From the IMG/VR virus record IMGVR_UViG_3300007542_000024: 20,000 nt of DNA; one strand, given 5' to 3'. The notes below the pieces were generated by a model. The model was not told where the DNA came from and made no database searches. It saw nothing but the letters and a program-made list of their open reading frames with translations. The translations under genes were made by a program, and so were the position numbers. Positions 1,491 through 17,933 of this stretch are shown here, one piece after another. Source of the stretch: an uncultured virus (IMG/VR IMGVR_UViG_3300007542_000024). Its lineage: Duplodnaviria; Heunggongvirae; Uroviricota; Caudoviricetes. Within the stretch, counting starts at the first letter, position 1; each line of letters begins with the position of its first letter.

Positions 1491-1502
1491 AGGAGACCCC
1501 CC

Positions 1503-3352: not shown

Positions 3353-3369
3353 GGTACCTCCGAAGCACT

Positions 3370-3385
3370 CCTATCATAGCGAAAA
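3370..3385 (-). promoter_or_regulatory. Putative late promoter TTTTCGCTATGATAGG
   Basis: 13/16 identical to 16575-16590; both lie just upstream of genes carrying the FxxELEKxA motif. Confidence 0.45.
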
Positions 3386-3438
3386 GGGAGATGGGCCGCT
3401 CCGCGCCCCCTCGACCATGCGAGGAGGCGCGGAGCAGC
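3381..3438 (-). terminator. 19-bp hairpin followed at a short distance by TTTT; probable terminator of the - strand operon
   Basis: Arms 3395-3413 and 3420-3438 pair fully on the - strand with two G-U wobbles; T-tract at 3382-3385. Confidence 0.6.
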
Positions 3439-3470
3439 GGGTGGAGGCAGTGTTCTCCCGACTCAAGAGG

Positions 3471-3483
3471 CTTATCCCCGAAA
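3471..3483 (-). promoter_or_regulatory. Repeated promoter-like motif TTTCGGGGATAAG
   Basis: Matches the TTTC-N4-ATAAG copies at 7459, 8503 and 9065; intergenic. Confidence 0.55.
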
Positions 3484-3496
3484 CCCGGGGCTGATT

Positions 3497-4135
3497 CTAC
3501 AGCTCGAAGCCCTTCAAGAAGTCGTCGATCTCATCGTCCTCGAGGCCGAGCTCGTCCTCGGCCGGCGTGGCGACCTTCTCCTTGCCCTTCGGCTTGTCCA
3601 CCTGGCACTCTCCCAGCCCCAGCGGGTCGCAGTCAGCGTGCTCGCAGTCGCGGCAGAGGTCCTCGTTGTAGTCCGAGGCGGTCAGGTCGTGCACGGTCGA
3701 ATCGGCCGGACCCATGGGGCGGGCGCAGCAGGCGCAGGGCTTCAGGTCTTCCTCGAGGTCACCTCGGCTGGGCTTGGGGGTGCCGCGGGGGCGCTTGGTC
3801 TTCTTGGGGGCCAGGATGACCGGGTGGATGCTGCGCCACAGCCTGGGGAGTTCCGGGGCAGGGTGCATCGTCCAGGCGCCCAGGTGGTCGCCCAAGGCGA
3901 TGAGGATCTTGGCGTACAGTCCGTTGTTGCTCGTGTGGGCGCGCACCTGGCGCCAGCTCAGCCCCTGATCCGCTCCGGGCAGGCCGGCGCAGAAGGCCAG
4001 GATCTCACCCTTGCGCTGCTCGACAGCCTCTCGGTCGAGCTCGACGGCGTCTGTGACCTCGGGACCGTACCGCAGGCGCAGGCAGGGGGCACGGTCACCG
4101 GCGAGCAGCTCGCCTACGCTGAACGTGCGAGCCAT
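3497..4135 (-). CDS. Hypothetical phage protein with C-terminal Cys-rich (Zn-binding) segment and acidic tail
   Basis: 212 aa; CACC...CRDC...C...C; GGAGG SD; ATG abuts the upstream TAG. Confidence 0.75.
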   Translation of the reverse strand: MARTFSVGELLAGDRAPCLRLRYGPEVTDAVELDREAVEQRKGEILAFCAGLPGADQGLSWRQVRAHTSNNGLYAKILIALGDHLGAWTMHPAPELPRLWRSIHPVILAPKKTKRPRGTPKPSRGDLEEDLKPCACCARPMGPADSTVHDLTASDYNEDLCRDCEHADCDPLGLGECQVDKPKGKEKVATPAEDELGLEDDEIDDFLKGFEL

Positions 4136-4951
4136 CTACACCTCCCCGATCTCCACCATCAAGGGATCCACCTCGCGGAGCTTGGCGGTGATGATGGGGG
4201 CGATCTCGGCTTCGTCCCATGCGGGGAGCGCCTCGGGGTGGACCTCCTGCACCACGCGGGACATCACCATCGCCAGGTGATCGGGGGCGATGTTGTAGCC
4301 CCGCCGGAGGAACTTCACGACGCGGAGCAGGGAGCCGCCAGCTTCCTCCTCACGCATCGGCCGCATGTAGGCCAGGCGTTTGGCGGCCAGGTCGGCGTAG
4401 TACCGGGGGTGGCACATGGAGGTCCATCCCGGTTGGCGGCGCAGGGCAGCATGCGAGGCGCGCTCGCGCTTCTGGAAGTCGTCCGCGGGGCCGCCGAACA
4501 GGGCTGCCTGCTCGCCCTCGGTATGACGCATCCACAGCCCCGCGGAGGCGATGGTGAAGTCGAAGGACAGCAGCATCTTGGTGGGGTTGCTGTAGGTCCA
4601 GCGGTGGACCACCTGCACCGCCGTTCGCCAGCGGCGGACGGTGTAGGCGTTGTCGGTGACCCAGATGTGGCCCTTGTCCACACCGGCCTCGAAGCTCTCT
4701 TCGAGCAGGAAGGCCGTCACGGTCTGCGCCAGTTCCTTGTCGTCGACGATGAGGTCGATGTCGTTGACCGGCGTGCCCGAGATGGTGGAGCGGATGAACC
4801 CGCCGGCGACGAACACGCGCCCGGGGTACTCACAGAGTACCTCGAGGATGCGCTGGGGCAGGACGCGCAGGCAGAACTGGAGGTCTTCCCACAGCAGCTG
4901 GCCCATAGGCTGGGCAGCCGTGGTGCAGGGGTCGAGCGGCTCTTGGGTCAT
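4136..4951 (-). CDS. Nucleotidyltransferase, CCA-adding enzyme/poly(A) polymerase head-domain-like
   Basis: VFVAGGFIRSTISGTPVNDIDL matches the class II NTase hGG..R...DxD signature; FDFTI corresponds to the RDFTIN motif; no HD domain visible. Confidence 0.8.
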   Translation of the reverse strand: MTQEPLDPCTTAAQPMGQLLWEDLQFCLRVLPQRILEVLCEYPGRVFVAGGFIRSTISGTPVNDIDLIVDDKELAQTVTAFLLEESFEAGVDKGHIWVTDNAYTVRRWRTAVQVVHRWTYSNPTKMLLSFDFTIASAGLWMRHTEGEQAALFGGPADDFQKRERASHAALRRQPGWTSMCHPRYYADLAAKRLAYMRPMREEEAGGSLLRVVKFLRRGYNIAPDHLAMVMSRVVQEVHPEALPAWDEAEIAPIITAKLREVDPLMVEIGEV

Positions 4952-5247
4952 CCGGCACTCCGCCCGGGGTAGCCGGGGATCGGCTCGCGCGGCTTGAGGC
5001 CCACGCAGACCCAGGCCTCGTTCTCGGGGACGTTGAGCTGCTTGGCGGTCTCGATGTTCATGGAGAGCACCTGGGGGCCCGTGGCGCCCTGGAGCTGCAC
5101 GCAGAAGCGCTTGGGAGGCCTGCCAGAGCGGTGGGGGATGACCTGGGCGGGCACTTCGTCGCCCGACTTGCCGCCAGGCGGCATCAGGAGGACCCGGTCA
5201 CCGACCTTGAGCGGGCCGATGGGGGTGTTGATGTGTTCGGAAGGCAT
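4948..5247 (-). CDS. Hypothetical protein (possible SH3/KOW-like barrel)
   Basis: Start moved to ATG 5247 (GAGAGG SD, 2 nt after the upstream TAG); LKVGDRVLL pattern; 99 aa. Confidence 0.65.
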   Translation of the reverse strand: MPSEHINTPIGPLKVGDRVLLMPPGGKSGDEVPAQVIPHRSGRPPKRFCVQLQGATGPQVLSMNIETAKQLNVPENEAWVCVGLKPREPIPGYPGRSAG

Positions 5248-5249
5248 GA

Positions 5250-5885
5250 CTACCTCTCGTTGAGTGCCCGAAGTCGAGTTTTCTGCTCTTCGGACATGGG
5301 GGTGGACTTCACGTCGACGGGCTTGAAGGCGTAGGGCAGGGAGCGGAACACGTTCTCGCGGAACCACATGTGGATGCACATCCCACCGTCGACGTCGGTG
5401 TTGAGGTCGTAGCCGAGCAGGCCTGCGCCGGCGCGGCGAAGAAGTTCGGCTGCGTAGGCCCCGTGCGTGGCCCACACGGGGATCTGTCCGGTGGCCTCCA
5501 CGAGCTCTGGGCAGACGGTGAGGTTGATCTCATCCCACTTGCCGCCGCGACCGGCGAGCTCATCGATGAGGAAGGCCACCTGGGGGTCGCTACCCTGCCC
5601 CACGGGCTTGAAGGCGTAGGCGAGCGAGCGGAAGGCTCGCGCATCCACGCGGATGCGCCCGCTGCGGGTGCGGGCATCGAGTTGGTGCGCCACGAGACGT
5701 GACCCGCAGCGACGGAGGACCTGCGCAAGCAGGTTCCCGTAGGTGGCGGCTACCTCCACGTAGCCTTTCTCGAGCTCTCCCCGGGACACGGTCATGCTGA
5801 CCTCGTCGGAGGGCGAGCCGTACCTGTTGACGACAGCCAGGGCATCCCTGGCTTGCTGAGCTGTCTCTACGTTGTGCCAATTCAT
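5250..5885 (-). CDS. Hypothetical protein made of two tandem homologous domains
   Basis: AFRSLAYAFKPV and VFRSLPYAFKPV; DEVSMTV and DEINLTV; AQVLRRCG and AELLRRAG. Confidence 0.8.
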   Translation of the reverse strand: MNWHNVETAQQARDALAVVNRYGSPSDEVSMTVSRGELEKGYVEVAATYGNLLAQVLRRCGSRLVAHQLDARTRSGRIRVDARAFRSLAYAFKPVGQGSDPQVAFLIDELAGRGGKWDEINLTVCPELVEATGQIPVWATHGAYAAELLRRAGAGLLGYDLNTDVDGGMCIHMWFRENVFRSLPYAFKPVDVKSTPMSEEQKTRLRALNER

Positions 5886-6031
5886 GTGTCACCTGTTTCG
5901 GCGGGTGGCTCCGCATTCCCGTGCTCCCCGGACGGCCCTGTCCCTCTCGGGCAGTCGACCTCCTCCCCCATTCGACGGTTCACCGCACGGGCACGCGCTT
6001 CCACTCCACACTGGCCGGTTGACCATGCTGC

Positions 6032-6256
6032 TTATGCCCGTTTCCGGCCGCGGTTCTCGGTCGTCAGGGCGCGGTCCATGGCCATCCAGAAGGCGAGGAT
6101 GCCCTGGATGATCGTGGAGTTGGAGATGTGCTTGCGGAAGGGGCGGACGATGCTACTGCGCTGTAGCTCGCTCTTCTTGCGCTCGATGAACGCTGCCTGC
6201 TCGGGAGGGATGCGGATGGTCATCTGCACCATCCCCTTCGACTTCTTGCGGGTCAT
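6032..6256 (-). CDS. Ribbon-helix-helix-like DNA-binding protein
   Basis: 74 aa; alternating strand MVQMTIRIP, helix PEQAAFIERK, then SNSTIIQGIL; AGGAG SD. Confidence 0.6.
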   Translation of the reverse strand: MTRKKSKGMVQMTIRIPPEQAAFIERKKSELQRSSIVRPFRKHISNSTIIQGILAFWMAMDRALTTENRGRKRA

Positions 6257-6806
6257 TCGCCTCTCCTTGCTGCAGCGTCGCGATGTACGCCTTCCAGGCT
6301 TCTACGTCTCTTCTTTGTACCCAGACTTGCCGCGGGTTGCCAGCGTTCCACCGGGCAGTGCCTCGACTTCCCGGGAACTTGAAGGTGACGTAGCCTCCGG
6401 TTTCCTCGACCCCGGGGGAGACGTCAGTGACGGTGGCCTGGGGCCAGCGACGGCGCACTTCGGCTTCGGCGTGCTCGGCTCGTTCGCGGGAGCGCTCCTT
6501 CAGCTCGAGGAACTCGCACGTGTGCGCATGCGTCACGGCGAAGCGCCCGTTGCCTGGCGAGCTGTAGACGCGCAGAGCGTGCGTGCAGCCCTCGGGGAGG
6601 TCCGAGGCGAAGACCCAGCGCGCGTAGTAATAGCGGAGGGGCCCCATGTACGGGACGGCCGCGTCTTCGTCGCACTCGAACTCTACGAGGTAGTCGGCGA
6701 GCGCCTCGAGGTAGGTCCCGCGGTCCACGTGCCCCCGCACGTAGTACTCGACGGGATCCCCGTCCCACACCAGGGGGAGGACCTCTCCCACGGCAGCGGA
6801 CGGCAT
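6153..6806 (-). CDS. Hypothetical protein
   Basis: Start at ATG 6806 (TGATG overlap, GAGG SD); the last 104 nt overlap the RHH-like gene. Confidence 0.7.
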   Translation of the reverse strand: MPSAAVGEVLPLVWDGDPVEYYVRGHVDRGTYLEALADYLVEFECDEDAAVPYMGPLRYYYARWVFASDLPEGCTHALRVYSSPGNGRFAVTHAHTCEFLELKERSRERAEHAEAEVRRRWPQATVTDVSPGVEETGGYVTFKFPGSRGTARWNAGNPRQVWVQRRDVEAWKAYIATLQQGEANDPQEVEGDGADDHPHPSRAGSVHRAQEERATAQ

Positions 6807-7228
6807 CAGAACCTCGTGGACGGGCGCCTGGAGTCGGGCCACCCGTCGAACAGCTCGACGATGCGCATGCCAGCGGACTGAGGATACTCGCGAAACTCGG
6901 GGTCCTCGAGGGTGCCGTCCGCCTGGCGCGCGGCCCACTCTTGCTGCATCAGCTTGTCGTTCGCCCAGTTGGGGAAGCCCTGCGCGTAGTCGATGGCGAA
7001 CCCGAGCATCGCGTCGGTGACGCGGCCGCGACGGAGTGCCAGGTCCGTGTGCCCCAGGGCATCCAGACGCTCCGAGAGGACGTACAGGTGGTCGCCGGCG
7101 TCCGTGGAGTCCTTCGTCTGCACGAGCATCGAAGCCACGCGGCGTACCTCCTCGGCTGTCGGGGAGGTCTCGAAGTCGTCATGGGCGATGGCGAACGCCT
7201 TGAGCGACGTATGCTGGATCAGTTCCAT
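6806..7228 (-). CDS. Hypothetical protein
   Basis: 140 aa; GC3-biased; overlaps both neighbours. Confidence 0.7.
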   Translation of the reverse strand: MELIQHTSLKAFAIAHDDFETSPTAEEVRRVASMLVQTKDSTDAGDHLYVLSERLDALGHTDLALRRGRVTDAMLGFAIDYAQGFPNWANDKLMQQEWAARQADGTLEDPEFREYPQSAGMRIVELFDGWPDSRRPSTRF

Positions 7229-7419
7229 CGTTCAACGCTCTCCCGGATGCTCTCCAGCGTCTCCCACATCTTGTCGGTAACGCGGTTCGTGGCGCGGGCG
7301 GTCTCGCTCATCCCCTCCACGAGCTGCGCCCAGCGTCCGGACGCGCGGCAGGATGAGGGGAGGTCGGCAATGTCTTGGAGCAGGTCGTCGGCCTGCTCGA
7401 GGAAGGAGTCGGAGTCCAT
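7219..7419 (-). CDS. Small helical hypothetical protein
   Basis: Start moved to ATG 7419 (GAGGT SD), downstream of the promoter motif at 7459; 66 aa. Confidence 0.7.
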   Translation of the reverse strand: MDSDSFLEQADDLLQDIADLPSSCRASGRWAQLVEGMSETARATNRVTDKMWETLESIRESVERWN

Positions 7420-7458
7420 GGGTACCTCACGTAGGGAGTCACGAGGGGGAGTACTACC

Positions 7459-7471
7459 CTTATGCGCGAAA
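7459..7471 (-). promoter_or_regulatory. Repeated promoter-like motif TTTCGCGCATAAG
   Basis: Intergenic, about 40 nt upstream of ATG 7419. Confidence 0.65.
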
Positions 7472-7487
7472 GAGAGCGCGAACGCCA

Positions 7488-7513
7488 GCCCCCTCTGGCA
7501 GGCCAGAGGGGGC
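7488..7513 (-). terminator. GC-rich hairpin, probable terminator
   Basis: GCCCCCTCTGGC / GCCAGAGGGGGC inverted repeat just after the stop at 7526; no adjacent U-run. Confidence 0.55.
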
Positions 7514-7525
7514 CGGGGGAGAGTC

Positions 7526-8485
7526 CTACTCGATGGGCAGCGACTCACGGGCGGGTTCGGGCTTCTCGATGTCGTCCGGCGTGTCCGTGCCCTTCACGGG
7601 CTCCGGGGGCGGATACCCCGCGGCGACGAAGAGCTGGGTCACCAGGTCGGTGTCGCGGCCGGCTTCCCACTCACGCTGCAGGATGGTGATGATGTCCTCG
7701 AGCTTGGTCTCGGCGAGGTCCGCGCGCTTGGTGAGCGCGACGTACTGCGCCGCGAGCCACTCCAGCCCGTCGAAGACCGGCTCGAAGACGGAGAAGTCCT
7801 CGGGCGAGGCCAGGTGGTTGGTCAGCCCGATCACGACGGCCTTGGCCTTGTCGGTGAACTCCAGGTGGTTGTAGTCCAGGAAGAAGGGGTGGGTGTGCAG
7901 ACCTTCCACGACGCGGATGATCGTGGTGGCGAGGATGTGCTTGGGGCGCATGGAGACCTCTCGAGCGGGAGTGCGTTCACGGGCAGAAGCCCCGTGGGCG
8001 GTGGGTGTGGGGTTCAGGCGAAGTGCGCGGTCCAGCGCACGGTAGGTGGAGTGCGGGCAGTACTTGGCGATGGTGCGCTCGAGGGACATGCGAAGCTGGT
8101 CGCTGTTGAGCAGCACGGGCGAATCTTCGACGTAGGGGACGGTCACCTGCAGGATGGCGTTCTGGAACGCCTCGTGGAAGTGGCTGCGCGGGCTGTTGGC
8201 GAAGTAGGGCCAGAGCCCGGCGAGGGTCACAGCGGCGGCGCGCGGATCCTGCAGCTTGCGGCGGGTAGCGAGCACGGTGGATGCCCGCGCAGTGCGCATC
8301 CAGCGCCAGAACTCCCGAACAGCAGGAGGGGAGTGCATCTCGCCCAGGGCATACTCGACGCGCGCGTCGTAGAGGGACTTGTGCATGGACTCTCCAGGGC
8401 CGAGCGACGGGTGCACGTTCGACGGTGGGGGCACGGGCAGACGGAAGGCCTGCCCCGTAGCCTCGAGGGAAGGAATGGTGGACAT
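7526..8485 (-). CDS. Hypothetical protein (possibly two fused genes; internal SD + ATG at 7951)
   Basis: 319-aa ORF; GAGAGG SD before 8485 and again before 7951. Confidence 0.7.
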   Translation of the reverse strand: MSTIPSLEATGQAFRLPVPPPSNVHPSLGPGESMHKSLYDARVEYALGEMHSPPAVREFWRWMRTARASTVLATRRKLQDPRAAAVTLAGLWPYFANSPRSHFHEAFQNAILQVTVPYVEDSPVLLNSDQLRMSLERTIAKYCPHSTYRALDRALRLNPTPTAHGASARERTPAREVSMRPKHILATTIIRVVEGLHTHPFFLDYNHLEFTDKAKAVVIGLTNHLASPEDFSVFEPVFDGLEWLAAQYVALTKRADLAETKLEDIITILQREWEAGRDTDLVTQLFVAAGYPPPEPVKGTDTPDDIEKPEPARESLPIE

Positions 8486-8502
8486 GTGTACCTCTCACCT
8501 AC

Positions 8503-8515
8503 CTTATGCGTGAAA
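8503..8515 (-). promoter_or_regulatory. Repeated promoter-like motif TTTCACGCATAAG
   Basis: Intergenic, 17 nt upstream of ATG 8485. Confidence 0.65.
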
Positions 8516-8527
8516 GTGTGGGGCGGT

Positions 8528-8557
8528 GCCCCCGCCCGCCTACTGGCGGGCGGGGGC
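8528..8557 (-). terminator. 13-bp perfect hairpin overlapping a stop codon, probable terminator
   Basis: GCCCCCGCCCGCC-tact-GGCGGGCGGGGGC. Confidence 0.6.
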
Positions 8558-8758
8558 TTCGAAGACGCCGGGGGCGCTCTCGACCATCGGGATCACCACG
8601 GTACCCTCGGGGGGTTGGTAGCGCGGCTGCGCCTTGCGGGCGTCGGGGGGCACCTCGTAGGTGAACTCGATGTCAGCGGTGTCTCGTCGAGCCTTGGCCT
8701 GCCCGCGTGCGATTCCGACGCGGATGTTGCGGGTCAGGACTTCCAGCAGGACGCTCAC
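8540..8758 (-). CDS. Small hypothetical protein
   Basis: GTG at 8758 overlaps the upstream TGA (GTGA); 72 aa. Confidence 0.6.
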   Translation of the reverse strand: MSVLLEVLTRNIRVGIARGQAKARRDTADIEFTYEVPPDARKAQPRYQPPEGTVVIPMVESAPGVFEAPARQ

Positions 8759-9012
8759 TGCGCGAGCTCGCGCTTGTGCTCCGGGTGGACGATGGCGACG
8801 GCGCCGGCGGCGCGCAGGAGCTCCTGCGGGTCCACCGAGACGGTCACCGTCAGGGGCTGCCCCGGCTGCCACTTGAAGAGCTGCCCATCGAAGCGGGCGT
8901 TGAGCTGCAGCGTGACCAGGGGGTTCCCGGACTCACAGCGGACGCGCATCTCCCCATCGGGGAGGCGCTTGCCCTCTTTGTTCCGGAGCTTGACGGCGGT
9001 AGAGATCTGCAT
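8755..9012 (-). CDS. Small hypothetical protein
   Basis: Start moved to ATG 9012 (AGGAGG SD); 85 aa. Confidence 0.7.
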   Translation of the reverse strand: MQISTAVKLRNKEGKRLPDGEMRVRCESGNPLVTLQLNARFDGQLFKWQPGQPLTVTVSVDPQELLRAAGAVAIVHPEHKRELAQ

Positions 9013-9064
9013 GGCTGCCTCCTGAGTGTGACTGGAGAGGCGTCTCTCTGTCCTCTCCAAGCCC

Positions 9065-9077
9065 CTTATGAGCGAAA
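9065..9077 (-). promoter_or_regulatory. Repeated promoter-like motif TTTCGCTCATAAG
   Basis: Intergenic, upstream of ATG 9012. Confidence 0.65.
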
Positions 9078-9091
9078 GCAGCGTGGGATTG

Positions 9092-9123
9092 CTCCCTCCT
9101 CTCGCCGAAGCAGGAGGAGGGAG
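9092..9123 (-). terminator. Hairpin capped by a cUUCGg tetraloop, probable terminator
   Basis: The - strand reads CTCCCTCCTC ctgc TTCG gcga GAGGAGGGAG, 14 nt after the stop at 9138. Confidence 0.6.
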
Positions 9124-9137
9124 ACTTCCGTGACGGG

Positions 9138-10193
9138 TCAGTCGGTCAAGCTGGAGCTGAAGTCGTACTCGGCGTGGGTCCGGAGGAACAGCAGCACCTG
9201 GTCGAAGGCGGCTTCGCTGAGCACGAGGGGGCCGAACTTCTCTCCGGTGAGCGTGTCCATCAGCCAGAACAGGAGGTCGATGTGCCCATCGTCAGCACTC
9301 GGCCGGAAGGACACCCCGAGCCGCTGGTGGTTGTCGTGCTTCTCGCTGCCCAGTTGGACGACGGTCACCGTGATGAGGGCCTGCTCGCCGAAGACGTCGC
9401 CCTCGGTGGCCCGCACCAGCCTCTCGGCCAGCTGCTCGTTGATGTGCTTGGCCTGCTGCAGCGGGGCGCACGCCTGCATGCGCGCATAGAGCCTGGACTG
9501 CTCGACGTGGAGAGGCCGGGGGCGCTGCTTCTTGCCGAAGATGCGACGGACCTCCTCGGGGTCCACGCCGTTGGGGTCCGCCGAGATGTCAGCGACGGAG
9601 ATGCCCCCGTCCAGCAGCTGCTCGAGCCTCTCCATCTTCTCGAGGACCAGCTGCATCTGCGCCGGCTCGATGCCGTGGTTCCTGCGCAGGGCCGCCTCGA
9701 TGCTGCTCAGCTTGGCCGCGAGGTCCCGGTGGTGGGGGCCCGCTCCCTTGTTGATGGCGTCCAGCAGGTTGTGCAGCGCGGCCCGCGCCTGGTTGGCCGA
9801 GGACAGCCGGCGCGTCAGCGTGGTCATCTGCGTCTCGAGCGCCTTGTCGATGTGGGCCTCGAGGCGCGTGACCGCGTCGAAGATGCTGGGGTGCGTCTGG
9901 TCCTCGCCCTCCTCGATGCCGCTGTCGACGGCGAGGAAGGTACGGATGAGGGTGTCAGCGTCGGGCGCCGTGTCGCTCATCTTCTCGAGGCGGATGGCTC
10001 GCATCATGCCGGCGAGGGCCGCGGTCTGCCAGGTCGCGAAGCCGCGGCCGGTCTCCTGCTCGAGGAGCTGCAGGGCCCTGGCCATTCGGCTCCGCACGTG
10101 GTTGTGGTGGGCCTGCTCGTTGTCGAGATCGGGGTCGATCTCGCCGGCGAGGTACCTGTCGATGTAGTCCATGAGATCGTGCCAGTTGATCAT
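9138..10193 (-). CDS. Hypothetical protein with coiled-coil-like central region
   Basis: 351 aa; GAGG SD; strong GC3 bias. Confidence 0.8.
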   Translation of the reverse strand: MINWHDLMDYIDRYLAGEIDPDLDNEQAHHNHVRSRMARALQLLEQETGRGFATWQTAALAGMMRAIRLEKMSDTAPDADTLIRTFLAVDSGIEEGEDQTHPSIFDAVTRLEAHIDKALETQMTTLTRRLSSANQARAALHNLLDAINKGAGPHHRDLAAKLSSIEAALRRNHGIEPAQMQLVLEKMERLEQLLDGGISVADISADPNGVDPEEVRRIFGKKQRPRPLHVEQSRLYARMQACAPLQQAKHINEQLAERLVRATEGDVFGEQALITVTVVQLGSEKHDNHQRLGVSFRPSADDGHIDLLFWLMDTLTGEKFGPLVLSEAAFDQVLLFLRTHAEYDFSSSLTD

Positions 10194-10208
10194 GGTGGTC
10201 TGCTTCCT

Positions 10209-10517
10209 CTACTGCTTGGGAGGCGCGGGACGCTGCCCTGCCTCGTTAGGGTTGTGCTGGAGGACGGACTCCTCCAGGTCAGTCACGAGCGCCTGAAGGT
10301 GGTGCTCGAAGTCTTGCCAGGTGTCCAGGGGGACGTAGCCGAGCACCTCGACATCGGCATGGACGGAGCCGATGCCGAAGCGCGTGTGTGGCGAGGTGAG
10401 GTGCACACCTACGCCGGCGTTGGCGTAGGCATCCTCGGGAGGTCCCTCGGCGGGCTTGGTGGCGTCATCCAGCTCCCAGGGGGCGGGAGGGCTCGTGACG
10501 CCGCGGTCTTTGCTCAT
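10209..10517 (-). CDS. Hypothetical protein
   Basis: 102 aa; ATGA coupling; GAGG SD. Confidence 0.7.
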   Translation of the reverse strand: MSKDRGVTSPPAPWELDDATKPAEGPPEDAYANAGVGVHLTSPHTRFGIGSVHADVEVLGYVPLDTWQDFEHHLQALVTDLEESVLQHNPNEAGQRPAPPKQ

Positions 10518-10945
10518 GGATTTCCTCGCACGACCCAGATGAGCGGGTAGGGCGCTGCTGGGTCCATCTGCCTGGCCGTCGGGTCGACGTACCAGTGGTC
10601 ATCTCCGTGGTCGATGCGGACGATGGTGTGGCCTTCGAAGGCACGTGCGCAGTCGCGGGCGTTCCGGTAGTAGCGCATGGCCTCGGCCGGCGGGAGATCC
10701 ATCTCCTCGCAGTCGTTCGCGTAGAACGAGACGGGACTCTCATCGTCGTCATCGTCGTCCAGGTAGACCCCGTAGTGGATGGTGTCCACCTCGTGGCCGC
10801 AGTCGGCCAGCTCGAGGGTCAAGTCGTCGGAAGCGAAGGCGCAGTTCCCGCGGGCCTTCGCAGGCACTACGTACTCCGGGTGGCAGCCCACCCAGTTCTC
10901 GATGATGCACGCCAGCATGGCTGGCATGTCCGAGATGCTCAGCAT
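10514..10945 (-). CDS. Papain/transglutaminase-like fold protein (Cys-His-Asp)
   Basis: RGNCAFAS ... GHTIV ... YVDPTARQ ... PYPLIW; paralog of 12994-13467. Confidence 0.6.
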   Translation of the reverse strand: MLSISDMPAMLACIIENWVGCHPEYVVPAKARGNCAFASDDLTLELADCGHEVDTIHYGVYLDDDDDDESPVSFYANDCEEMDLPPAEAMRYYRNARDCARAFEGHTIVRIDHGDDHWYVDPTARQMDPAAPYPLIWVVRGNP

Positions 10946-11218
10946 CTATGCTGCTCCTCGCTGCTGCTTGTTGTAGGCGTCCGCCTCGAGGACATCGACA
11001 GCGGTGCCGTAGTCCCCTGCGGGGAAGATGGTGGTGGGAGCGCGGCCGCGGCAGCGGCATACCTTGGCCACCGCATCCTTGACGGACACCTCCCAGAGCT
11101 GCCCGTCCGGGTCGCCGACGCGGCCGTCGAACCAGTAGTTCCACAGCACGTCGTTCTTCGTCTTGCTCCCGGAGGTCTTCATGCTCTGCCCGACGCGGGG
11201 CTCGGAAGCCGAGGTCAT
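10946..11218 (-). CDS. Hypothetical protein
   Basis: 90 aa; GGAGGAG SD; TAG-ATG abutment at both ends. Confidence 0.7.
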   Translation of the reverse strand: MTSASEPRVGQSMKTSGSKTKNDVLWNYWFDGRVGDPDGQLWEVSVKDAVAKVCRCRGRAPTTIFPAGDYGTAVDVLEADAYNKQQRGAA

Positions 11219-11770
11219 CTACTCCTCCAGTGGGGAGCACCGCCCGAAGGGGACGGTGTCCTCCTTCACGATGACCGAGCCATCGTCGAAGTGGACTTCG
11301 TGGTGCATGACGACCAGGTCGTTGTCCTCGAACTGATCGGCCATCAGCTCGGCGAAGACGTTCCCCTGCTCGCGAGGCGTGCTGTCCATCGTGAAGATGG
11401 CGCCCGAGGGCATGGGGTAGGGTTCGATGGTGGCCTGCTCGAAGAAGAGGGGCGGCTCGTCCGTGAGCCTGTCGGCGTCGGACTTGATGCCTCGAGGGCC
11501 TTCAGCGTGCACAGTCCTTGCGGGCCCCGGGCGGAACAGGCCAGTGATGGCCTCCCTCAGCGGCAGCATCGCCTTGTTCATCTTCCGTAGGCGAGCTGCT
11601 GTTTCCTTGGACACGAGCTGGGTGCTTGGGTCCACCGGCTTCCCGCATGCGGGGCAGTGGAACTCCGGGCTCTTCACACCCCGCATGCGCATGCGAGAGC
11701 AAGGGTGATGGTGGTGCGGGATGAGGAACTCGTGCCCACAGCTGCAGGTGTAGGGTCCGGGCCTCGGCAT
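11219..11770 (-). CDS. Zn-ribbon-containing hypothetical protein
   Basis: CSCGH ... CPACG near the N-terminus. Confidence 0.7.
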   Translation of the reverse strand: MPRPGPYTCSCGHEFLIPHHHHPCSRMRMRGVKSPEFHCPACGKPVDPSTQLVSKETAARLRKMNKAMLPLREAITGLFRPGPARTVHAEGPRGIKSDADRLTDEPPLFFEQATIEPYPMPSGAIFTMDSTPREQGNVFAELMADQFEDNDLVVMHHEVHFDDGSVIVKEDTVPFGRCSPLEE

Positions 11771-11968
11771 CTACTCCCAGCCTCCATCGGCGCAGATGCA
11801 CTGAGCACGGCCGACGACCGTGTGGCCTTCGGCGTCCTTCTTCTTGATGCCTCCGCACTCGGCGCACTTCGGGGGAGGCTCCTTGCCGAGCATCATCGCG
11901 AAGAGGTCGGCGACTCCTGCCTGGCTCTTCCGCGTCTTGTCGAAGCGGAGCTCGATCTCCTTGCTCAT
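11771..11968 (-). CDS. Small Cys-rich (Zn-binding) hypothetical protein
   Basis: CAECGG ... CIC; start set at the ATGA overlap (11968); 65 aa. Confidence 0.65.
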   Translation of the reverse strand: MSKEIELRFDKTRKSQAGVADLFAMMLGKEPPPKCAECGGIKKKDAEGHTVVGRAQCICADGGWE

Positions 11969-12177
11969 CGAGGTACTCTCATACACACAGCGGCGCCGGG
12001 CTCGACGACGACTGTGGCGGTGACGCTCACCTCGCCTTCGATGGCGGCGTTGTCCTGCGCGCGGCGCGCCTGCAGCTTCACGTCGGCTGCGGAGGTCTCG
12101 TGGCCTGCGACGCTCTCGAGGTAGCGGGAGATGGCGAGACGGATCTCGCAGTCGGTCAGGGCGTAGGTGATCTTCAT
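11965..12177 (-). CDS. Small hypothetical protein
   Basis: MKITYALTD...; ATGA coupling at both ends; 70 aa. Confidence 0.65.
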   Translation of the reverse strand: MKITYALTDCEIRLAISRYLESVAGHETSAADVKLQARRAQDNAAIEGEVSVTATVVVEPGAAVCMRVPR

Positions 12178-12383
12178 GGCGTTCTCGTCTCGATGAAGTA
12201 GCGACCCTCGTCGTGCTGCAGGCCGACCGTGTCGCCTGGCTTCGCCGGAGGGGGGCCGATGTGGATCTCGCCGGCGCGCAGCTTCGCGACCACGTCGTCG
12301 TAGCTGAAGCCGTAGGCTCGGTAGTAGGCGGCCGCGGCGTCGAGGCTGCGGAAGTGGCTGGTGCCTGTGCGGACGCGGCTCAT
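12174..12383 (-). CDS. Small hypothetical phage protein
   Basis: MSRVRTGTSHF...GEIHIGPP...GRYFIE; GGAGG SD; ATGA coupling; 69 aa. Confidence 0.7.
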   Translation of the reverse strand: MSRVRTGTSHFRSLDAAAAYYRAYGFSYDDVVAKLRAGEIHIGPPPAKPGDTVGLQHDEGRYFIETRTP

Positions 12384-12592
12384 GGGCGCCTCCGGGGGAT
12401 GCCCAGCTGGCATGCGAGGCACTCGATCGGTTCCTCGATACGATGGGGGCGATCCTTCTCGATGCGGTAGTAGGTGACGGGGTAGGAGCGCGCTTCGACA
12501 ACGACTGCGACGTTGCTCACCCTGGGCAGCTCGTCGCTGAAGCGGCGGCGGATGCGCTGCACGTTCGGCTCGCTGCACTTCAGCTTCGCCAC
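12380..12592 (-). CDS. Small hypothetical protein
   Basis: GTG start; 70 aa; fills the gap between coupled neighbours; CLAC near the C-terminus. Confidence 0.6.
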   Translation of the reverse strand: MAKLKCSEPNVQRIRRRFSDELPRVSNVAVVVEARSYPVTYYRIEKDRPHRIEEPIECLACQLGIPRRRP

Positions 12593-12993
12593 GGGAACAT
12601 CCCCTTCAGGCGCGCGGCGAGCTTGGAGAAGAAGAGCTCGATGCGCCCTTCGACGAGCACGGGCTCCCGACGTGGAGGTTGCACCTCGTGGAAGGCTGGC
12701 TCGCCGTAGGTGTGGAAGACGACGTTCTCGTACATGTAGGTGCGCGTGAGCCTCGAGTCGTCGGACGCATGGGTCTCGGTGGCGAAGGCCACGAGGTAGC
12801 AGTCGTGCCAGCGACGCTCGTTGGGCGCGTCGATGATGCGCAGGTTCTCGCTGAAGTACAGCTTCCCGTCAGCTATGATGCGGGAGCAGTGGAACTCCCA
12901 GTGACCGTCGGGATGGCGCTGCGGTACCTGGGACAGCGACCCGACGGCGAAGGCGATGCTGTTCGGTCCGCGTGCGATGGTGATGGGGTGCAT
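12580..12993 (-). CDS. Hypothetical protein (N-terminus MHPIT)
   Basis: 137 aa; GGAG SD; ATG abuts the upstream TAG. Confidence 0.7.
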   Translation of the reverse strand: MHPITIARGPNSIAFAVGSLSQVPQRHPDGHWEFHCSRIIADGKLYFSENLRIIDAPNERRWHDCYLVAFATETHASDDSRLTRTYMYENVVFHTYGEPAFHEVQPPRREPVLVEGRIELFFSKLAARLKGMFPWRS

Positions 12994-13467
12994 CTACGTC
13001 TCCGAAGCGGCGGGTACGGGCCGCCAGATGAAGGGGAAGGGCAGGCGCTTGTCGAACTGGCGTGCCGTGAGGTCGACCATCCACCCGCGGTAGAAGAGGA
13101 CGCAGTGGTCGTTGGCGGGCACGAGCTCCCCAGCGGCGTCCCGCGAGTACTCCCCGTTGTCGTCCATGTGGAAGTAGGGGTAGCGCGCGGGCAGCGGGCC
13201 TTCGATGTAGCGCCCGAGCTCGGCGGTCATGTTCTCGATGTGCTTGATGCCGCGGCTACAGTCGTTGAGGCAGATCCAGGTGACGTGACCTTCGCCAAGC
13301 AGCGCGCGCAGCTCGCGAGCTACCCAGTCGCAGATGCCCTGACCTCCGGTGTCCTCGAGGATGCGGACGAACGAGCCTCGGGCATAGCCATCAGACTCGA
13401 CGAAGAGGTCAGGCAGGACGGCGAGCACGTCGGCAGCAGGGCCCTCGGCGCAGGTGATGGGGTGCAT
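12994..13467 (-). CDS. Papain/transglutaminase-like fold protein (Cys-His-Asp)
   Basis: Start moved to ATG 13467; QGICDWVA ... DHCVL ... MVDLTARQF ... PFPFIW; 157 aa. Confidence 0.6.
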   Translation of the reverse strand: MHPITCAEGPAADVLAVLPDLFVESDGYARGSFVRILEDTGGQGICDWVARELRALLGEGHVTWICLNDCSRGIKHIENMTAELGRYIEGPLPARYPYFHMDDNGEYSRDAAGELVPANDHCVLFYRGWMVDLTARQFDKRLPFPFIWRPVPAASET

Positions 13468-13829
13468 GGCTACTTCCCGGAGTGGTAGGCGAGGTTGACG
13501 AAGCCGTTGTCCTTCGGCGTGACGACGACGGCAGGCGGCACGACCTCTTCGTCGGGCCCGATGATGGCGATGTCGGGGATACGGTCGTCCTTGTTGGAGG
13601 CGCACAGCTCGAGCCTCGCGAGGCTCCGCGGATTGTAGAGGCCCGGGCCGATCTCTTCGTGCACTCCCTTGCGCAGGTCGATGCCGTTGTACTTGCCGCA
13701 CTCGGCGCAGACGTAGTCCTCGGTGCGCGTGTGGGCGACGAGGCAGCCCTCGATGCCGTCAGGGCAGGGGATGAGCGGCACGGTGTACTCGTGGCCGCAG
13801 GCGCAGGTGATGTGCATGACTACTTCCCG
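13447..13829. repeat. Direct repeat spanning two gene junctions (13447-13479 and 13800-13829)
   Basis: ggcgcaggtgat(ggg)gtgcatg[g/a]ctacttcccg; 29/30 identical apart from a 3-nt indel. Confidence 0.85.
13470..13817 (-). CDS. Zn-ribbon-containing hypothetical protein
   Basis: CACGH ... CPDG..GC..AH ... CAECG. Confidence 0.75.
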   Translation of the reverse strand: MHITCACGHEYTVPLIPCPDGIEGCLVAHTRTEDYVCAECGKYNGIDLRKGVHEEIGPGLYNPRSLARLELCASNKDDRIPDIAIIGPDEEVVPPAVVVTPKDNGFVNLAYHSGK

Positions 13830-14035
13830 CTCACGAGGTGGATGCTGGCGTCGATGGTGGGCGCGTCCTTCTGGCGCTGCGAGTCCTTCTTCATCAGCTT
13901 GGCCTCGATGAAGCGGTCGTAGGCACGCTGGTGGTCGGCAGGCAGCTTCCCGCTGCTCGTGCGCGCGTGCGCATCGAAGACGAGGCGCTCGGTGATGTCG
14001 GCTCCTTCGAAGAAGCGGTAGACGATGAACGGCAT
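13820..14035 (-). CDS. Small hypothetical protein
   Basis: 71 aa; TGATG coupling. Confidence 0.7.
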   Translation of the reverse strand: MPFIVYRFFEGADITERLVFDAHARTSSGKLPADHQRAYDRFIEAKLMKKDSQRQKDAPTIDASIHLVSGK

Positions 14036-14235
14036 CAGGACCCCTTCCGGCGTGGGACGTCGGCTACGTTCACAGCCAAGCCCCGGGCGCGCAAGACCTT
14101 CTCGGCCGCACTCCAGTCGGTGGGCAGGTCGGGCACGCGGCTCTTGATGATGCGGCCATCACAGACGTAGATGTCGTAGGTGAGCATCAGCGTGGGCTTC
14201 GAGACGAACTTCACGGTGATCGGGTGGGTCGACAT
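14035..14235 (-). CDS. Small hypothetical protein (MSTHPIT...)
   Basis: Start at the TGATG overlap (14235), GAGG SD; 66 aa. Confidence 0.65.
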   Translation of the reverse strand: MSTHPITVKFVSKPTLMLTYDIYVCDGRIIKSRVPDLPTDWSAAEKVLRARGLAVNVADVPRRKGS

Positions 14236-14803: not shown

Positions 14804-14852
14804 CAGGGGGCCGAGTCACAGGATGCCGTCATCTTCGTCAAGGAGTGCTGAT

Positions 14853-15764
14853 ATGTCAGGTTCGAGGGTCCCTTCCCGCATGCACCGTCAAGGCCCCCCG
14901 CAGCCCGTTCAGGGGATCGGTTCTGCGTTCGCCCAGAACCAGGCTCTTGCCGGAGCCCAGGATCCGGAGGCTGCTGCAAAGCTCTCCGAGCTGCCACCCG
15001 AGGAGCGAGCAGAGTACCTCCAGAAGATGGAGCGAGAGCGGGCTCGACGGGAGGAGATCATCGGAGAACTCCTGGGAGCTTACTCGCAAGGACTCCTGGA
15101 GGGGTTCTCGGGCATCGTCGCTGTGTCGTCGGACGATCTCTCGGAGAAGCTCAACGGCATGCCAACTCCCCAGTTGGAGAAGCTCTTCACCCGCTTCAAC
15201 GAGTGGTTGGAGGACAAGGAGATCTCGGGCGACGCCGGGGACCTCTTCCTGCAGCCGGCTGTGACCGACCCTGCCGATCCTCTCTACGACCCCATGATGG
15301 ACCACCCGCGGCGGAAGGCGCTCAACGAGCAGCTGGAGCCCATGAGCTTCTCGCAGATGGTCTTCAAGGGCTATGTGGACCAGACGGTCACTGTGCGCGA
15401 AGGCCTCACGGTCACCTTCCGCACCCTGCCCCAGCAGCACGGGCTGTGGCTCGAGCGTGAGCTGATCCGGGCGAAGGACTTCATGGCCCAGTACGGCCGC
15501 CACTGGTTCTCGTCCATGCAGGTGGCCACCTCGGTGCAGGCCATCAACGGCGAGAGCATCGGCCCCGACCTCTCCCCCTACTTCAAGGACACCGAGGAGC
15601 ACCGCAAGGGCTTCCTCGAGGCGCTGGCCGACCGCCTGGAGTACCTGGGGCAGCGTCCCGCCATCCTGAACGACATCCTCATCGTGCACTACACCTGGTT
15701 CTGCGGGAGGGTCCGGCGCGACTTGCTGGGCGGCAACCTGACGGAGAAGGTGGGAAACTCCTAG
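14853..15764 (+). CDS. Putative tail assembly chaperone (gpG-like, short form)
   Basis: AGGAG SD before ATG 14853 (alternative start 14823); 303 aa; ends GTG GGA AAC TCC TAG with a slippery heptamer. Confidence 0.6.
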   Translation: MSGSRVPSRMHRQGPPQPVQGIGSAFAQNQALAGAQDPEAAAKLSELPPEERAEYLQKMERERARREEIIGELLGAYSQGLLEGFSGIVAVSSDDLSEKLNGMPTPQLEKLFTRFNEWLEDKEISGDAGDLFLQPAVTDPADPLYDPMMDHPRRKALNEQLEPMSFSQMVFKGYVDQTVTVREGLTVTFRTLPQQHGLWLERELIRAKDFMAQYGRHWFSSMQVATSVQAINGESIGPDLSPYFKDTEEHRKGFLEALADRLEYLGQRPAILNDILIVHYTWFCGRVRRDLLGGNLTEKVGNS

Positions 15765-15801
15765 AGGAGCCCCTGCAGCTCGCCCAAGCGGAGCTCCTCT
15801 A
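15752..15801 (+). promoter_or_regulatory. Programmed -1 ribosomal frameshift signal: G GGA AAC plus downstream stem
   Basis: In-frame X XXY YYZ heptamer at 15752-15758; TAGAGGAGC (15762-15770) pairs with GCTCCTCTA (15793-15801). Confidence 0.75.
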
Positions 15802-16240
15802 CGAACGGTACAAGGGCCAGGACAACCTCACCGCGCTGCAGCTGCGCCTGGTGTTGCTGGTCCACGTGCACCAGAAGCAGCAGCGCTTCCTCGAGGTACA
15901 GGCCCTCGCCTTCTCGGCGATGAGCAGCGAGACGCAGAAGGTGGCGCGTGCGCAGGTGGACCGCTTGCGCAAGCACATGTTCCCTGGCGCCAAGAGCGAG
16001 AAGGAGCAGTGGGCAGAGAAGGCCCGCCGCCAGCTGGCCGAGGAAGCCAAGAAGGTCTACCTGGTCACGCCGCACGGCGCCGGCGCGGTCAAGAACCTCA
16101 AGGCTGCCCTGCACTCGGACAACGCCGACATGCGCCGCTGGGCCTCCCACGAGCTCAAGGAGCGGGAGCGCAAGAAGAAGCAGGTGAGCTACCGCCAGCG
16201 CCGGCCCAAGCGCTACGGTGCGGGCATCACGCAGCTGTAG
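15758..16240 (+). CDS. Frameshift extension (gpT-like part of a gpGT-like fusion, about 462 aa in total)
   Basis: The -1 frame is open from the slippery site (LLEEPLQLAQAELLYERY...) to TAG 16240 with coding-like GC3; no convincing SD/start of its own. Confidence 0.7.
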   Translation, partial: LLEEPLQLAQAELLYERYKGQDNLTALQLRLVLLVHVHQKQQRFLEVQALAFSAMSSETQKVARAQVDRLRKHMFPGAKSEKEQWAEKARRQLAEEAKKVYLVTPHGAGAVKNLKAALHSDNADMRRWASHELKERERKKKQVSYRQRRPKRYGAGITQL

Positions 16241-16253
16241 GCCTGCTGAGGGC

Positions 16254-16276
16254 AAAAAGGAAGCGCGGGGGCTTCC
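16254..16276 (-). terminator. Intrinsic terminator GGAAGC-ccccgc-GCTTCC-TTTTT
   Basis: 6-bp stem directly followed by five T on the - strand. Confidence 0.75.
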
Positions 16277-16545
16277 GGGTGGGGGTGGTCCCGGCGGTGA
16301 GGTCTCGATCTCCCGGATGTACAAGTCCGGCGGCGCCGGTGGGAGTTGGGGATTGGTTGGTTCGCTGGAAGCCTGCCTGTACCAGGCTCCCGAAATGAGA
16401 CCTCACCTGCCGGGTCCGACGACTGATGTCGCGTACCTACAGCGGGCACATAGCCACCTCTCGGTGGGGGTTGGACGTCGCGCCTTCCCGCGGCTCGCCC
16501 CTCACGTGAGCAGCGGCCGAGGGAAGGCGTCTGCTTTCCTTCCTC
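16254..16545 (-). ncRNA. Candidate structured non-coding RNA, about 295 nt, family not recognised
   Basis: Bounded by the ATAAG motif and a terminator; several stems, a GAGA tetraloop and G-U wobbles that fit only the - strand; no credible ORF. Confidence 0.6.
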
Positions 16546-16551
16546 ACAGTG

Positions 16552-16564
16552 CTTATGCAGAGGA
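16552..16564 (-). promoter_or_regulatory. Variant promoter-like motif TCCTCTGCATAAG
   Basis: ATAAG core pointing into the ncRNA candidate. Confidence 0.55.
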
Positions 16565-16574
16565 CGCGCTCCGA

Positions 16575-16590
16575 TTTTCACCGTGATAGG
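16575..16590 (+). promoter_or_regulatory. Putative late promoter TTTTCACCGTGATAGG
   Basis: 13/16 identical to 3370-3385 (-); precedes three FxxELxKxA genes. Confidence 0.45.
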
Positions 16591-16621
16591 GTGTCCTCGT
16601 CACCCTACGCCGGAGACCTCC

Positions 16622-16954
16622 ATGAACGACACCACCCGAGGCCAGCTCCTCGCCCGTGGCTTCGCTTCCGAGCTCGAGAAGCAGGCAGGCAAGGGGAAGA
16701 GGCTCGCCGAGAAGCTCATCTCCCCCAAGAAGTACTACGCCAAGAAGGCTGACCGGCTCGGGCAGCGCGCGGGCCGTCAGGCGCGGGAAGCACACGAAGT
16801 GCGCAAGCGCTTCCCCCTGGGCTCGGCGGCCGCGGATGCGGTCGACGACCTGGCCACCCAGAACCACCTGGCCGCCAAGCTGGCCACCAAGAAGAGCAAC
16901 TCGCTGCGGGGCCTGCGAGGCCGCATCGAGGCTGTGACCGGGAGGAGGCTGTGA
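16622..16954 (+). CDS. Small basic protein with N-terminal GFASELEKQA motif (putative internal virion protein)
   Basis: Start moved to ATG 16622 (GGAG SD); 110 aa; Lys/Arg/Ala-rich. Confidence 0.75.
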   Translation: MNDTTRGQLLARGFASELEKQAGKGKRLAEKLISPKKYYAKKADRLGQRAGRQAREAHEVRKRFPLGSAAADAVDDLATQNHLAAKLATKKSNSLRGLRGRIEAVTGRRL

Positions 16955-17187
16955 ACTCTACCCTGCGCCAAGGCTTCGTCACCGAGCTGGTGAAGCTCGC
17001 TGGCCTCAAGCCCAACCTCAAGGCGATGTCGCTCGATGAGCGGCTCAACCACCTGCTCGTCCAGGCCGAACGCGGGGCCAAGAAGCGCGTGAAGGCCATC
17101 AAGGCTGGGGCGCGCTCGGCCGAGCAGCGCGTCGACAAGAAGGCTGCCCGCTGGGTGCGCAAGCACACCGGGGGAGGCACGCCGTAG
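16951..17187 (+). CDS. Small basic protein with N-terminal GFVTELVKLA motif
   Basis: GTGA overlap; GGAGGAGG SD; 78 aa. Confidence 0.75.
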   Translation: MNSTLRQGFVTELVKLAGLKPNLKAMSLDERLNHLLVQAERGAKKRVKAIKAGARSAEQRVDKKAARWVRKHTGGGTP

Positions 17188-17189
17188 GC

Positions 17190-17933
17190 ATGCGCCCCGA
17201 GCTGCTCCAAGGCTTCATGGACGAGCTCGAGAAGCTCGCCGTCTCCACGCAGCAGCTCGCAGCTGCAGCTGAGCGCATCGGGTACCGCAAGGCCACGGTG
17301 GGCCGAGCTATCAGGAATCCCCGGAAGATCGGGCGGCTGCTCTCCACTCGGAAGAGCCCTGCGCTCTCCCTACCCTCGGCCAAGGTCATGCAGGAGAGGG
17401 CCTCGGAGCGCATGTGGGATCTCGCTGGGGAGGCGCTGAAGCGCAAGCAAGGCCGCATCTACGTGCGCTCGTCGAAGGAGCTCGCGAAGAAGCTCGCTCC
17501 CGGCCAGAAGCTGGGCAAGGGAGACCGGCGTGCGGTGCGTGATGCGGTGGTCGTCCACGAGGGGGCCGAGCGCAAGGTACACCACCGGCTCACGGCCAAC
17601 GACTACCACGACACCTACGGGCACGCGAACCCCCGGGTCCTGCTGCACGAGCACAACATGATCTCTCGTCTCACGGGCCCTGGCTCGGAGAAGGTGCGCA
17701 AGGCGTTCCGCGGGATGCGGGAGAGCACGGGCGAGATGTCGGACCTCCAGCGGTCCATGGAGAAGGTCTACGGGCCGCGGGTACGCCAGTTCTTCCGGGA
17801 GGGAGAGAAGGTGCCCAAGGCCGTCACCAAGGACTTCGCCAAGCGCGTGGCCGCCGGCCACCCTGTGAAGCCCAAGGGCTCCGACATCAACGAGATCTTC
17901 GCGCAGTTCCAGCGGTCCATGCGAGGGCAATAG
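17190..17933 (+). CDS. Basic protein with N-terminal GFMDELEKLA motif and His/Glu cluster (possible zincin-like site)
   Basis: 247 aa; GGAGG SD; VVVHEGAE ... GHANP ... HEHN. Confidence 0.75.
   Translation: MRPELLQGFMDELEKLAVSTQQLAAAAERIGYRKATVGRAIRNPRKIGRLLSTRKSPALSLPSAKVMQERASERMWDLAGEALKRKQGRIYVRSSKELAKKLAPGQKLGKGDRRAVRDAVVVHEGAERKVHHRLTANDYHDTYGHANPRVLLHEHNMISRLTGPGSEKVRKAFRGMRESTGEMSDLQRSMEKVYGPRVRQFFREGEKVPKAVTKDFAKRVAAGHPVKPKGSDINEIFAQFQRSMRGQ

Follow-up and report, generated by a model that had tools for sequence, protein, structure and literature searches.

Genomic setting of the locus

What is the role of a 381-nt non-coding gap between two + strand genes of a large aquatic phage, and does it give rise to a folded RNA from its - strand? 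The gap occupies positions 16241-16621 of the window, i.e. of the whole 20,000-nt stretch of DNA that was analysed, which exhibits a GC content of 66.7%. Over positions 1-14039, the window shows 100% identity to one end of a viral contig of 110,689 bp (G001), and the locus sits past this contig end. For within-genome controls, G001 and the window were merged into a sequence of 116.65 kb, which represents an incomplete genome.

The genes of the phage itself include those for RecA, a family A DNA polymerase, a DnaG-like primase and a DnaB-like helicase. Domains of both the beta (Rpb2 domain 6) and the beta' (Rpb1 domains 1, 2, and 5) subunit of RNA polymerase are found in a single ORF of 2036 aa (L005:2280-8390, +). 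An 800-aa piece of this polymerase shows 35% identity to Salmonella phage Arash over the full length of the piece and 33% identity to three Vibrio phages, each of about 187 kb; with the polymerase gene as query, identical contigs only were retrieved. According to the report on Arash, no virion protein of this phage is detected more than its RNA polymerase, Gp206, and the phage carries 21 tRNAs (PMC10585845). RecA is 57-64% identical to sequences from Caulobacterales and Brevundimonas genomes, which gives a hint of a Caulobacterales host that is weak because RecA is widely conserved.

The stretch, or part of it, is present in contigs of 20 runs, all of DNA, from 13 studies of freshwater, estuary and marine samples. 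The copies in other runs are identical, and low word shares reflect partial cover by identical pieces. The contig of one run (X17) matches positions 15962-16259 with one difference, and its last 14 nt diverge at the base of the terminator hairpin described below. This short contig shows that a variant of the locus exists. The predicted transcript and the two genes that flank the gap are as follows.

16254-16548, - strand: predicted non-coding transcript of about 295 nt; MFE -147.0 kcal/mol, 94 pairs; no coding signal and no Rfam match
15851-16240, + strand: convergent flanking gene, 129 aa from a GTG; GC3 0.95; coding score +0.69
16622-16954, + strand: divergent flanking gene, 110 aa; GC3 0.88; coding score +0.57

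The protein of the convergent gene has one match, at 36% identity, and the gene as query found no viral locus. Its GC3 pattern begins already at about 15765 and its homologues are longer; its start may be an in-frame CTG near 15773 and not the GTG at 15851. The divergent gene is the first of a + strand trio ending at 17933. Its protein has a single match, which is 99% identical, and no locus was found with this gene as query in viral or metagenome contigs. The last gene of the trio (17190-17933, +) encodes a basic protein of 247 aa with 173 distant representatives in public proteins, 84 of them at E up to 1e-10, some of which contain it as a domain within much longer proteins; no Pfam family and no viral locus were found for it. 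Upstream of the convergent gene lies a gene (14823-15764, +) for a conserved 313-aa protein. Its AlphaFold model has a pLDDT of 81.5 and gave no match in the PDB with Foldseek (best E 0.53), and the gene as query found no viral locus.

Coding potential of the gap

The codon statistics agree with the original prediction that, apart from a 4-codon MCPL, the gap holds no credible ORF. Codon-position GC is flat and periodicity is absent from about 16230 to 16590, and all four ORFs of the gap have negative codon-usage log-odds (-0.17 to -0.58), against +0.57 to +0.69 for the flanking genes. The log-odds were trained on 111 genes of the phage itself; in 35-codon windows, the score of real genes averages 0.487, and its 5th percentile is 0.019. 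The GC content and GC skew at the gap are unremarkable.

Predicted promoter

An ATAAG motif had been pointed out upstream of the RNA. This motif appears to be the core of a two-part promoter, GTGAAA-N18-CATAAG.

16576-16581, - strand: upstream promoter element GTGAAA, 18 nt before CATAAG, identified by spacing enrichment
16552-16557, - strand: promoter core CATAAG, identified by the strand bias of ATAAG, the motif being conserved in relatives
16543-16548, - strand: TGTGAG block, also present after the two most similar promoters of the phage itself (genome 78289 and window 14659)

Along the 116.65 kb, the - strand carries 14 copies of ATAAG and the + strand a single one. At least nine of the 14 - strand sites are followed, 19-120 nt further on, by a GGAGG-type Shine-Dalgarno (SD) sequence and the start of a - strand ORF. 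For comparison, a profile built from 20 homologues of the 313-aa protein was used to collect 32 metagenome loci (L089-L120) with 29-57% protein identity and 34-65% GC. Counted over the phage's own genome and these related loci, GAAA-N18-[C/G/T]ATAAG is found at 20 sites at a spacing of 18, against 0-4 sites at each other spacing from 12 to 25, and in all 20 cases the site and the 313-aa gene are on opposite strands. All six high-GC relatives whose sequence extends upstream of the homologue of the 313-aa gene carry G[C/G/T]ATAAG on the opposite strand, 70-270 nt upstream of this homologue, and four of them have GCATAAG.

Within the 116.65 kb, the sole full promoter match is the site of the RNA unit (16581-16552), which conforms to the longer consensus, GTGAAA...CATAAG, and exactly matches the promoter of the family's early units, GTGAAA-N18-[C/T]ATAAG; no sigma-70-type promoter was found near the unit. 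The transcript would start inside the TGTGAG block. We infer that GTGAAA-N18-CATAAG is a promoter proper to the phage family, and the phage polymerase may be the enzyme that reads it. The kind of genes that it drives, together with the virion data for Arash, suggests that it acts early in infection. The top results of a literature search contained no description of this promoter or of the RNA, and a published account is possible.

Predicted terminator

16254-16276, - strand: predicted intrinsic terminator, GGAAGC-N6-GCUUCC followed by U5; hairpin -9.2 kcal/mol
16248-16257, - strand: terminator tail TTTTGCCCTC, present in exactly two copies in the 116.65 kb

The predicted terminator comprises a 6-bp stem (16276-16259) with a 6-nt loop and a T5 run at 16258-16254, which is the arrangement of an intrinsic terminator, a GC-rich hairpin leading directly into a U run. 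Runs of four or more T are rare in this genome, with 18 in the 233 kb of both strands (8 on + and 10 on -), and only two of those on the - strand lie directly 3' of a hairpin: that of the RNA unit and that of a cassette at genome positions 78289-77641. The second copy of TTTTGCCCTC ends this same - strand cassette. The family consensus of the promoter and the rarity of a hairpin followed by a T run in this genome thus point to a unit with its own promoter and terminator, as the original prediction had it.

The cassette (L005:17632-18290, -, genome 77632-78290) contains a 144-aa ORF of no known family. Its promoter is the one most similar to that of the RNA unit, and the tail is the same.

Predicted fold

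The fold of the - strand was computed, and every helix listed in the original prediction was recovered at, or within 1-5 nt of, the position given for it there.

16531-16508 / 16503-16480, - strand: long hairpin of 21 bp, CGCCUUCCC.../...GGGAAGGCG
16454-16467, - strand: hairpin CCACC-GAGA-GGUGG with a GNRA-type loop
16433-16449, - strand: 5-bp hairpin GUGCC / GGUAC
16419-16432, - strand: 5-bp hairpin GCGAC / GUCGU
16287-16417, - strand: 3' domain with a 24-bp long-range stem (16417-16392 / 16312-16287) at its base
16367-16391, - strand: 9-bp inner hairpin with GUACA in its loop
16339-16366, - strand: unpaired C/A-rich strand, unpaired probability mostly 0.8-0.9
16313-16330, - strand: 5-bp hairpin with the palindrome UGUACA in its loop

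The 311-nt - strand sequence exhibits an MFE of -149.1 kcal/mol and a z-score of -4.80, and none of 100 shuffles folded as well. Among 94 intergenic windows/strands of the phage itself, scored with only 12 shuffles each, the 381-nt gap ranks third, behind a convergent terminator region and a 5' leader. The + strand folds about equally well, with -150.5 kcal/mol against -147.0 kcal/mol for the - strand over the 295-nt span and a z-score of -3.21 over the 311-nt span. There are five G-U pairs among the 94 pairs of the - strand MFE structure, and the earlier claim that the - strand alone allows the G-U pairs was overstated. Structure alone does not set the strand, because the + strand folds about as well and the G-U pairs are few. 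The strand is assigned by the predicted promoter and terminator, and not by folding energy.

The long-range stem encloses the hairpins 16391-16367 and 16330-16313 as well as the unpaired C/A-rich strand of about 28 nt. As read from the sequence, the loops of these two hairpins share a 5-nt complementarity, and we propose a loop-loop contact between them. The RNA also has two further C-rich linkers, and its unpaired bases as a whole comprise 34% A, 35% C and 14% G. Unpaired bases rich in A and C and poor in G are more usual for the sense strand of a structured RNA. The combination of C/A-rich, G-poor strands with a very stable scaffold is what most sets this RNA apart, and it suggests a binding platform for a protein or a G-rich RNA. 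Against the 111 translation-start regions of the phage, the C-rich strands pair no better than shuffled seeds.

Comparison with known RNAs

The original prediction did not recognise the RNA as a tRNA, a tmRNA or another known RNA, and named a comparison with the Rfam covariance models as a check. The 4227 models of Rfam 15 gave no match at the gathering cut-off in the 20-kb window. With the E limit relaxed to 10 for 651 nt and to 5 for 301 nt, the searches gave sub-threshold matches only, of at most 17.9 bits against cut-offs of 34-100, and ARAGORN found no tRNA or tmRNA gene in the window. No family in Rfam explains the region.

Several specific classes were considered and for the most part rejected. 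A group I or group II intron does not fit, as the homologues of gene 15851-16240 are complete and stand-alone in 18 of the 32 loci and no intron model matched. A retron ncRNA does not fit, as no reverse transcriptase domain was found in the 25 window proteins that were scanned, and what follows the unit on the - strand is antisense to a + strand gene. No match to TROVE (Ro60), the expected protein partner of a Y RNA or YrlA, was obtained among the 64 proteins scanned, which represent part of an incomplete genome. The sRNAs with C-rich loops (6C, RsaE, CcsR) gave no match at the gathering score, and the C-rich strands of the RNA lie in junctions and linkers; the single match to CcsR1, at 13.8 bits against a cut-off of 65.3, falls within the neighbouring gene. 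A transposable inverted-repeat element was rejected, the sequence being present in a single copy in its own genome. A tRNA remnant was considered and rejected too, and a mimic of a CRISPR repeat was rejected by eye only.

GOLLD and ROOL are likewise multi-helix RNAs of unknown function borne by phages or prophages. They tend to adjoin tRNAs and are several hundred nucleotides long, whereas the present RNA measures about 295 nt, has no Rfam match and has no tRNA in the 20-kb window around it. The bacterial sRNAs 6C, RsaE/RoxS, CcsR, and AbcR present exposed C-rich motifs to G-rich or Shine-Dalgarno sequences. They share with the RNA unit G-poor C-rich strands, a stable scaffold and an intrinsic terminator. 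In contrast, the strands of the present RNA are located in junctions and linkers and not in hairpin loops, and the RNA is two to four times longer. Phage morons are inserted between operons with their own promoter and terminator, and the classic ones encode proteins. Like them, the unit is self-contained, opposite to both neighbours and missing at this place from related phages, but, unlike classic morons, it exhibits no coding signal.

Search for relatives of the RNA

Distant-mode blastn against 50,697 phage records found no relative of the RNA body, and exact RNA patterns were not found in viral contigs. Within the 116.65 kb of the phage itself, blastn-short gave matches of 10-20 nt only and no paralogue. 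A covariance model of the 3' domain (R1), run on 274 kb comprising the own genome and the 32 loci, found only the domain itself, at 173.6 bits; its other matches were the reverse strand of the same locus (28.4 bits) and two more at E > 2. With blastn and nhmmer, matches to the related loci did not exceed 26 nt. In 401 genomes from the order to which a RecA-matched genome belongs, ten matches of 25-34 nt were obtained, at differing positions of the query, and in five single genomes searched for the RNA body all matches had E > 0.1.

The gene pair 14823-15764 and 15851-16240 is syntenic in 18 of the 32 related loci, and the genes to the right of the RNA unit were found in none of them. In most relatives, the junction gap is about 37-150 nt or the genes overlap. 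No such RNA was found at the syntenic place in related phages, the one exception being an unrelated structured gap in a distant relative with 52% GC. This syntenic gap of 249 nt (L091:1653-1901, -) has a z-score of -5.25, against -2.41 on its + strand, and shows no sequence similarity to the RNA and no Rfam match. Arrays of tRNA genes are located 3-5 kb from the conserved pair in two relatives, with 12 genes (L113:10493-12847, +) and 4 genes (L099:9492-10889, -), respectively; no tRNA array was found in the 116.65 kb of the phage itself.

These data, which come from a single sequence, support a phage-borne, self-contained ncRNA unit that lies outside all Rfam 15 families.

Leader and early cassettes of related phages

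The early leftward mRNA cassettes of the same phage family (L089-L099) exhibit a promoter architecture and a spacing identical to those of the RNA unit. They lie at the same place and in the same orientation, downstream of the conserved pair and pointing back, and share with the RNA a purine-rich first 20 nt and a possible GGAAGG/CCUUCC hairpin. However, these cassettes carry an SD sequence and an ORF, whereas the RNA unit carries about 260 nt of folded non-coding sequence and its own terminator. In the relatives, 18 of 19 promoter sites have an ORF of at least 40 aa within 110 nt, with the SD sequence and the ATG usually at +35 to +56. Within about 110 nt of the promoter of the RNA unit, no SD sequence with a coding ORF was found, only ORFs with negative coding scores.

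16522-16543, - strand: alternative 5' leader hairpin GGAAGG / CCUUCC in the form typical of the family, -7.8 kcal/mol

The leaders of the relatives fold as a hairpin whose 5' arm is rich in purines and whose 3' arm is rich in pyrimidines. Because the loop lengths differ, RNAalifold found no consensus in the MAFFT-aligned leaders, and an anchored analysis of each sequence was used. The summed energy of 14 leaders is -139.3 kcal/mol, compared with -95.9 +/- 8.5 kcal/mol when the tails are shuffled, and G-C as well as A-U pairs are found at the same anchored positions of the arms. This support comes from the 14 leaders as a set and not from the leader of the RNA unit alone. The transcript of the RNA unit opens with the same purine block, and the leader hairpin, expected about 12 nt after the promoter motif, is missing from its local MFE structure, in which none of the nine arm positions is paired. 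When the hairpin is forced in the full RNA, the energy is -134.0 kcal/mol against -147.0 kcal/mol for the MFE, and in the full RNA the pyrimidine arm of the leader pairs within the 21-bp hairpin instead.

Possible function of the RNA

The reading that we prefer, and to which we give roughly even chances, is that positions 16548-16254 of the - strand constitute a stand-alone transcription unit; its RNA, of about 295 nt, would be non-coding and highly folded and might act in trans as a C/A-rich decoy or sponge. The unit would begin at the two-part promoter of the family, GTGAAA-N18-CATAAG, which the 2036-aa fused beta/beta' polymerase would read, probably early in infection, and transcription would end at the hairpin and U5 just before the convergent gene 15851-16240. 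The 5' region would form the 21-bp hairpin and three small hairpins, and the 3' domain, shut by the 24-bp stem, would expose the G-poor, C/A-rich single strand of about 28 nt. The C/A-rich strands would then serve as a decoy or sponge platform, the proposed partner being a factor, of the host or of the phage, with affinity for C-rich or G-complementary RNA.

A more far-reaching version, which we regard as unlikely, is that the sole full-consensus early promoter in the 116.65 kb drives an abundant RNA that serves as a host-takeover factor, its C/A-rich strands trapping a host RNA-binding machine (e.g. Rho or a global RNA chaperone) or G-rich RNAs. The long helices would then confer nuclease resistance, and the RNA would correspond, as RNA alone, to the small early proteins encoded by the relatives at the same place.

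If real, the product of the unit would be a structured RNA without a family, from little-known large aquatic phages with their own multisubunit RNA polymerase. It would fill a slot where relatives encode early proteins, and would thus offer a clean case for what a phage gains from RNA over protein at an early stage of infection. With the promoter consensus, the family's transcription programme becomes testable in vitro.

The main rival, which we consider unlikely, is a relic. In the relatives, the promoter and the first ~30 nt form an mRNA leader module, so the RNA unit may be an ORF-less cassette, i.e. an early leftward mRNA unit whose ORF was lost or replaced and whose RNA, if any, has no function of its own. 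The ORFs behind the same promoter and leader at 18 of 19 sites in relatives fit this explanation, as does the cassette 78289-77641, which shares the look of the promoter and the terminator tail yet has a 144-aa ORF; the RNA body, moreover, has no relatives in any of the collections searched. However, a fold with a z-score of -4.8 and helices of 21 and 24 bp is unexpected for decayed coding sequence. Residual coding signal is absent in every frame, and tblastn of the cassette proteins of relatives against the gap gave nothing below E 0.027. That the unit carries the sole full-consensus promoter in the 116.65 kb also speaks against a relic.

The unit could also act in cis, as an antisense unit or insulator whose leftward transcription or terminator blocks, or pairs with, read-through from 14823-16240 and thereby uncouples the trio 16622-17933. 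The act of transcription, or the duplex with + strand read-through, would then matter, and the fold would not. The position of the unit exactly between two + strand operons suits such a role; no + strand terminator follows gene 15851-16240, the sole T run being on the - strand, and the syntenic gap of L091, at the end of a leftward array, is also strongly structured on the - strand. Nevertheless, a simple antisense unit or roadblock needs no multi-domain fold, and the short or overlapping junctions of most relatives argue that a large element is not generally needed there, which makes this role quite improbable.

It is very unlikely that the + strand or the DNA itself is what matters, as an intercistronic or 5' UTR element, or as an origin, a packaging site or an operator. 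The + strand does fold well (z -3.21; -150.5 kcal/mol) and is G-rich; the copies of a 13-nt direct repeat lie 125 nt from each other on it, and an inverted repeat adjoins the start of gene 16622. In contrast, the promoter consensus and the hairpin with its T run are both specific to the - strand, and the unpaired bases of a + strand RNA would be rich in G and U. The direct repeat has just two copies, there is no AT-rich tract or iteron array, and neither the GC content nor the GC skew stands out at the locus.

Finally, a small protein, from a 37-codon ORF (GTG 16547), a 59-codon ORF (GTG 16406) or the 4-codon MCPL behind GAGAGG, is hardly credible: GTG 16547 does lie within the conserved TGTGAG block, making a leaderless start conceivable, and GAGAGG followed by 5 nt and ATG does resemble the start region of gene 7526-8485, but the coding scores of -0.17 and -0.30 fall below the 5th percentile of real genes (0.019), the 59-codon ORF crosses the terminator and has no SD sequence, and, by frame arithmetic, the equivalent GTG is out of frame with the downstream gene at two of the three promoters that share the block.

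Other ATAAG promoter loci

Two other - strand loci with an ATAAG promoter were observed. In the window, positions 3353-3496 (-) comprise such a promoter at 3475 and a strong hairpin with a U run at about 3385, with a fold z-score of -6.1. The hairpin lies about 30 nt before the start of gene 2255-3352, and the locus could be an attenuator-type leader or a short RNA. The second (L005:2005-2245, -) has its ATAAG promoter between two + strand genes, followed by a highly acidic ORF of about 47 aa and then by a hydrophobic ORF of about 22 aa.
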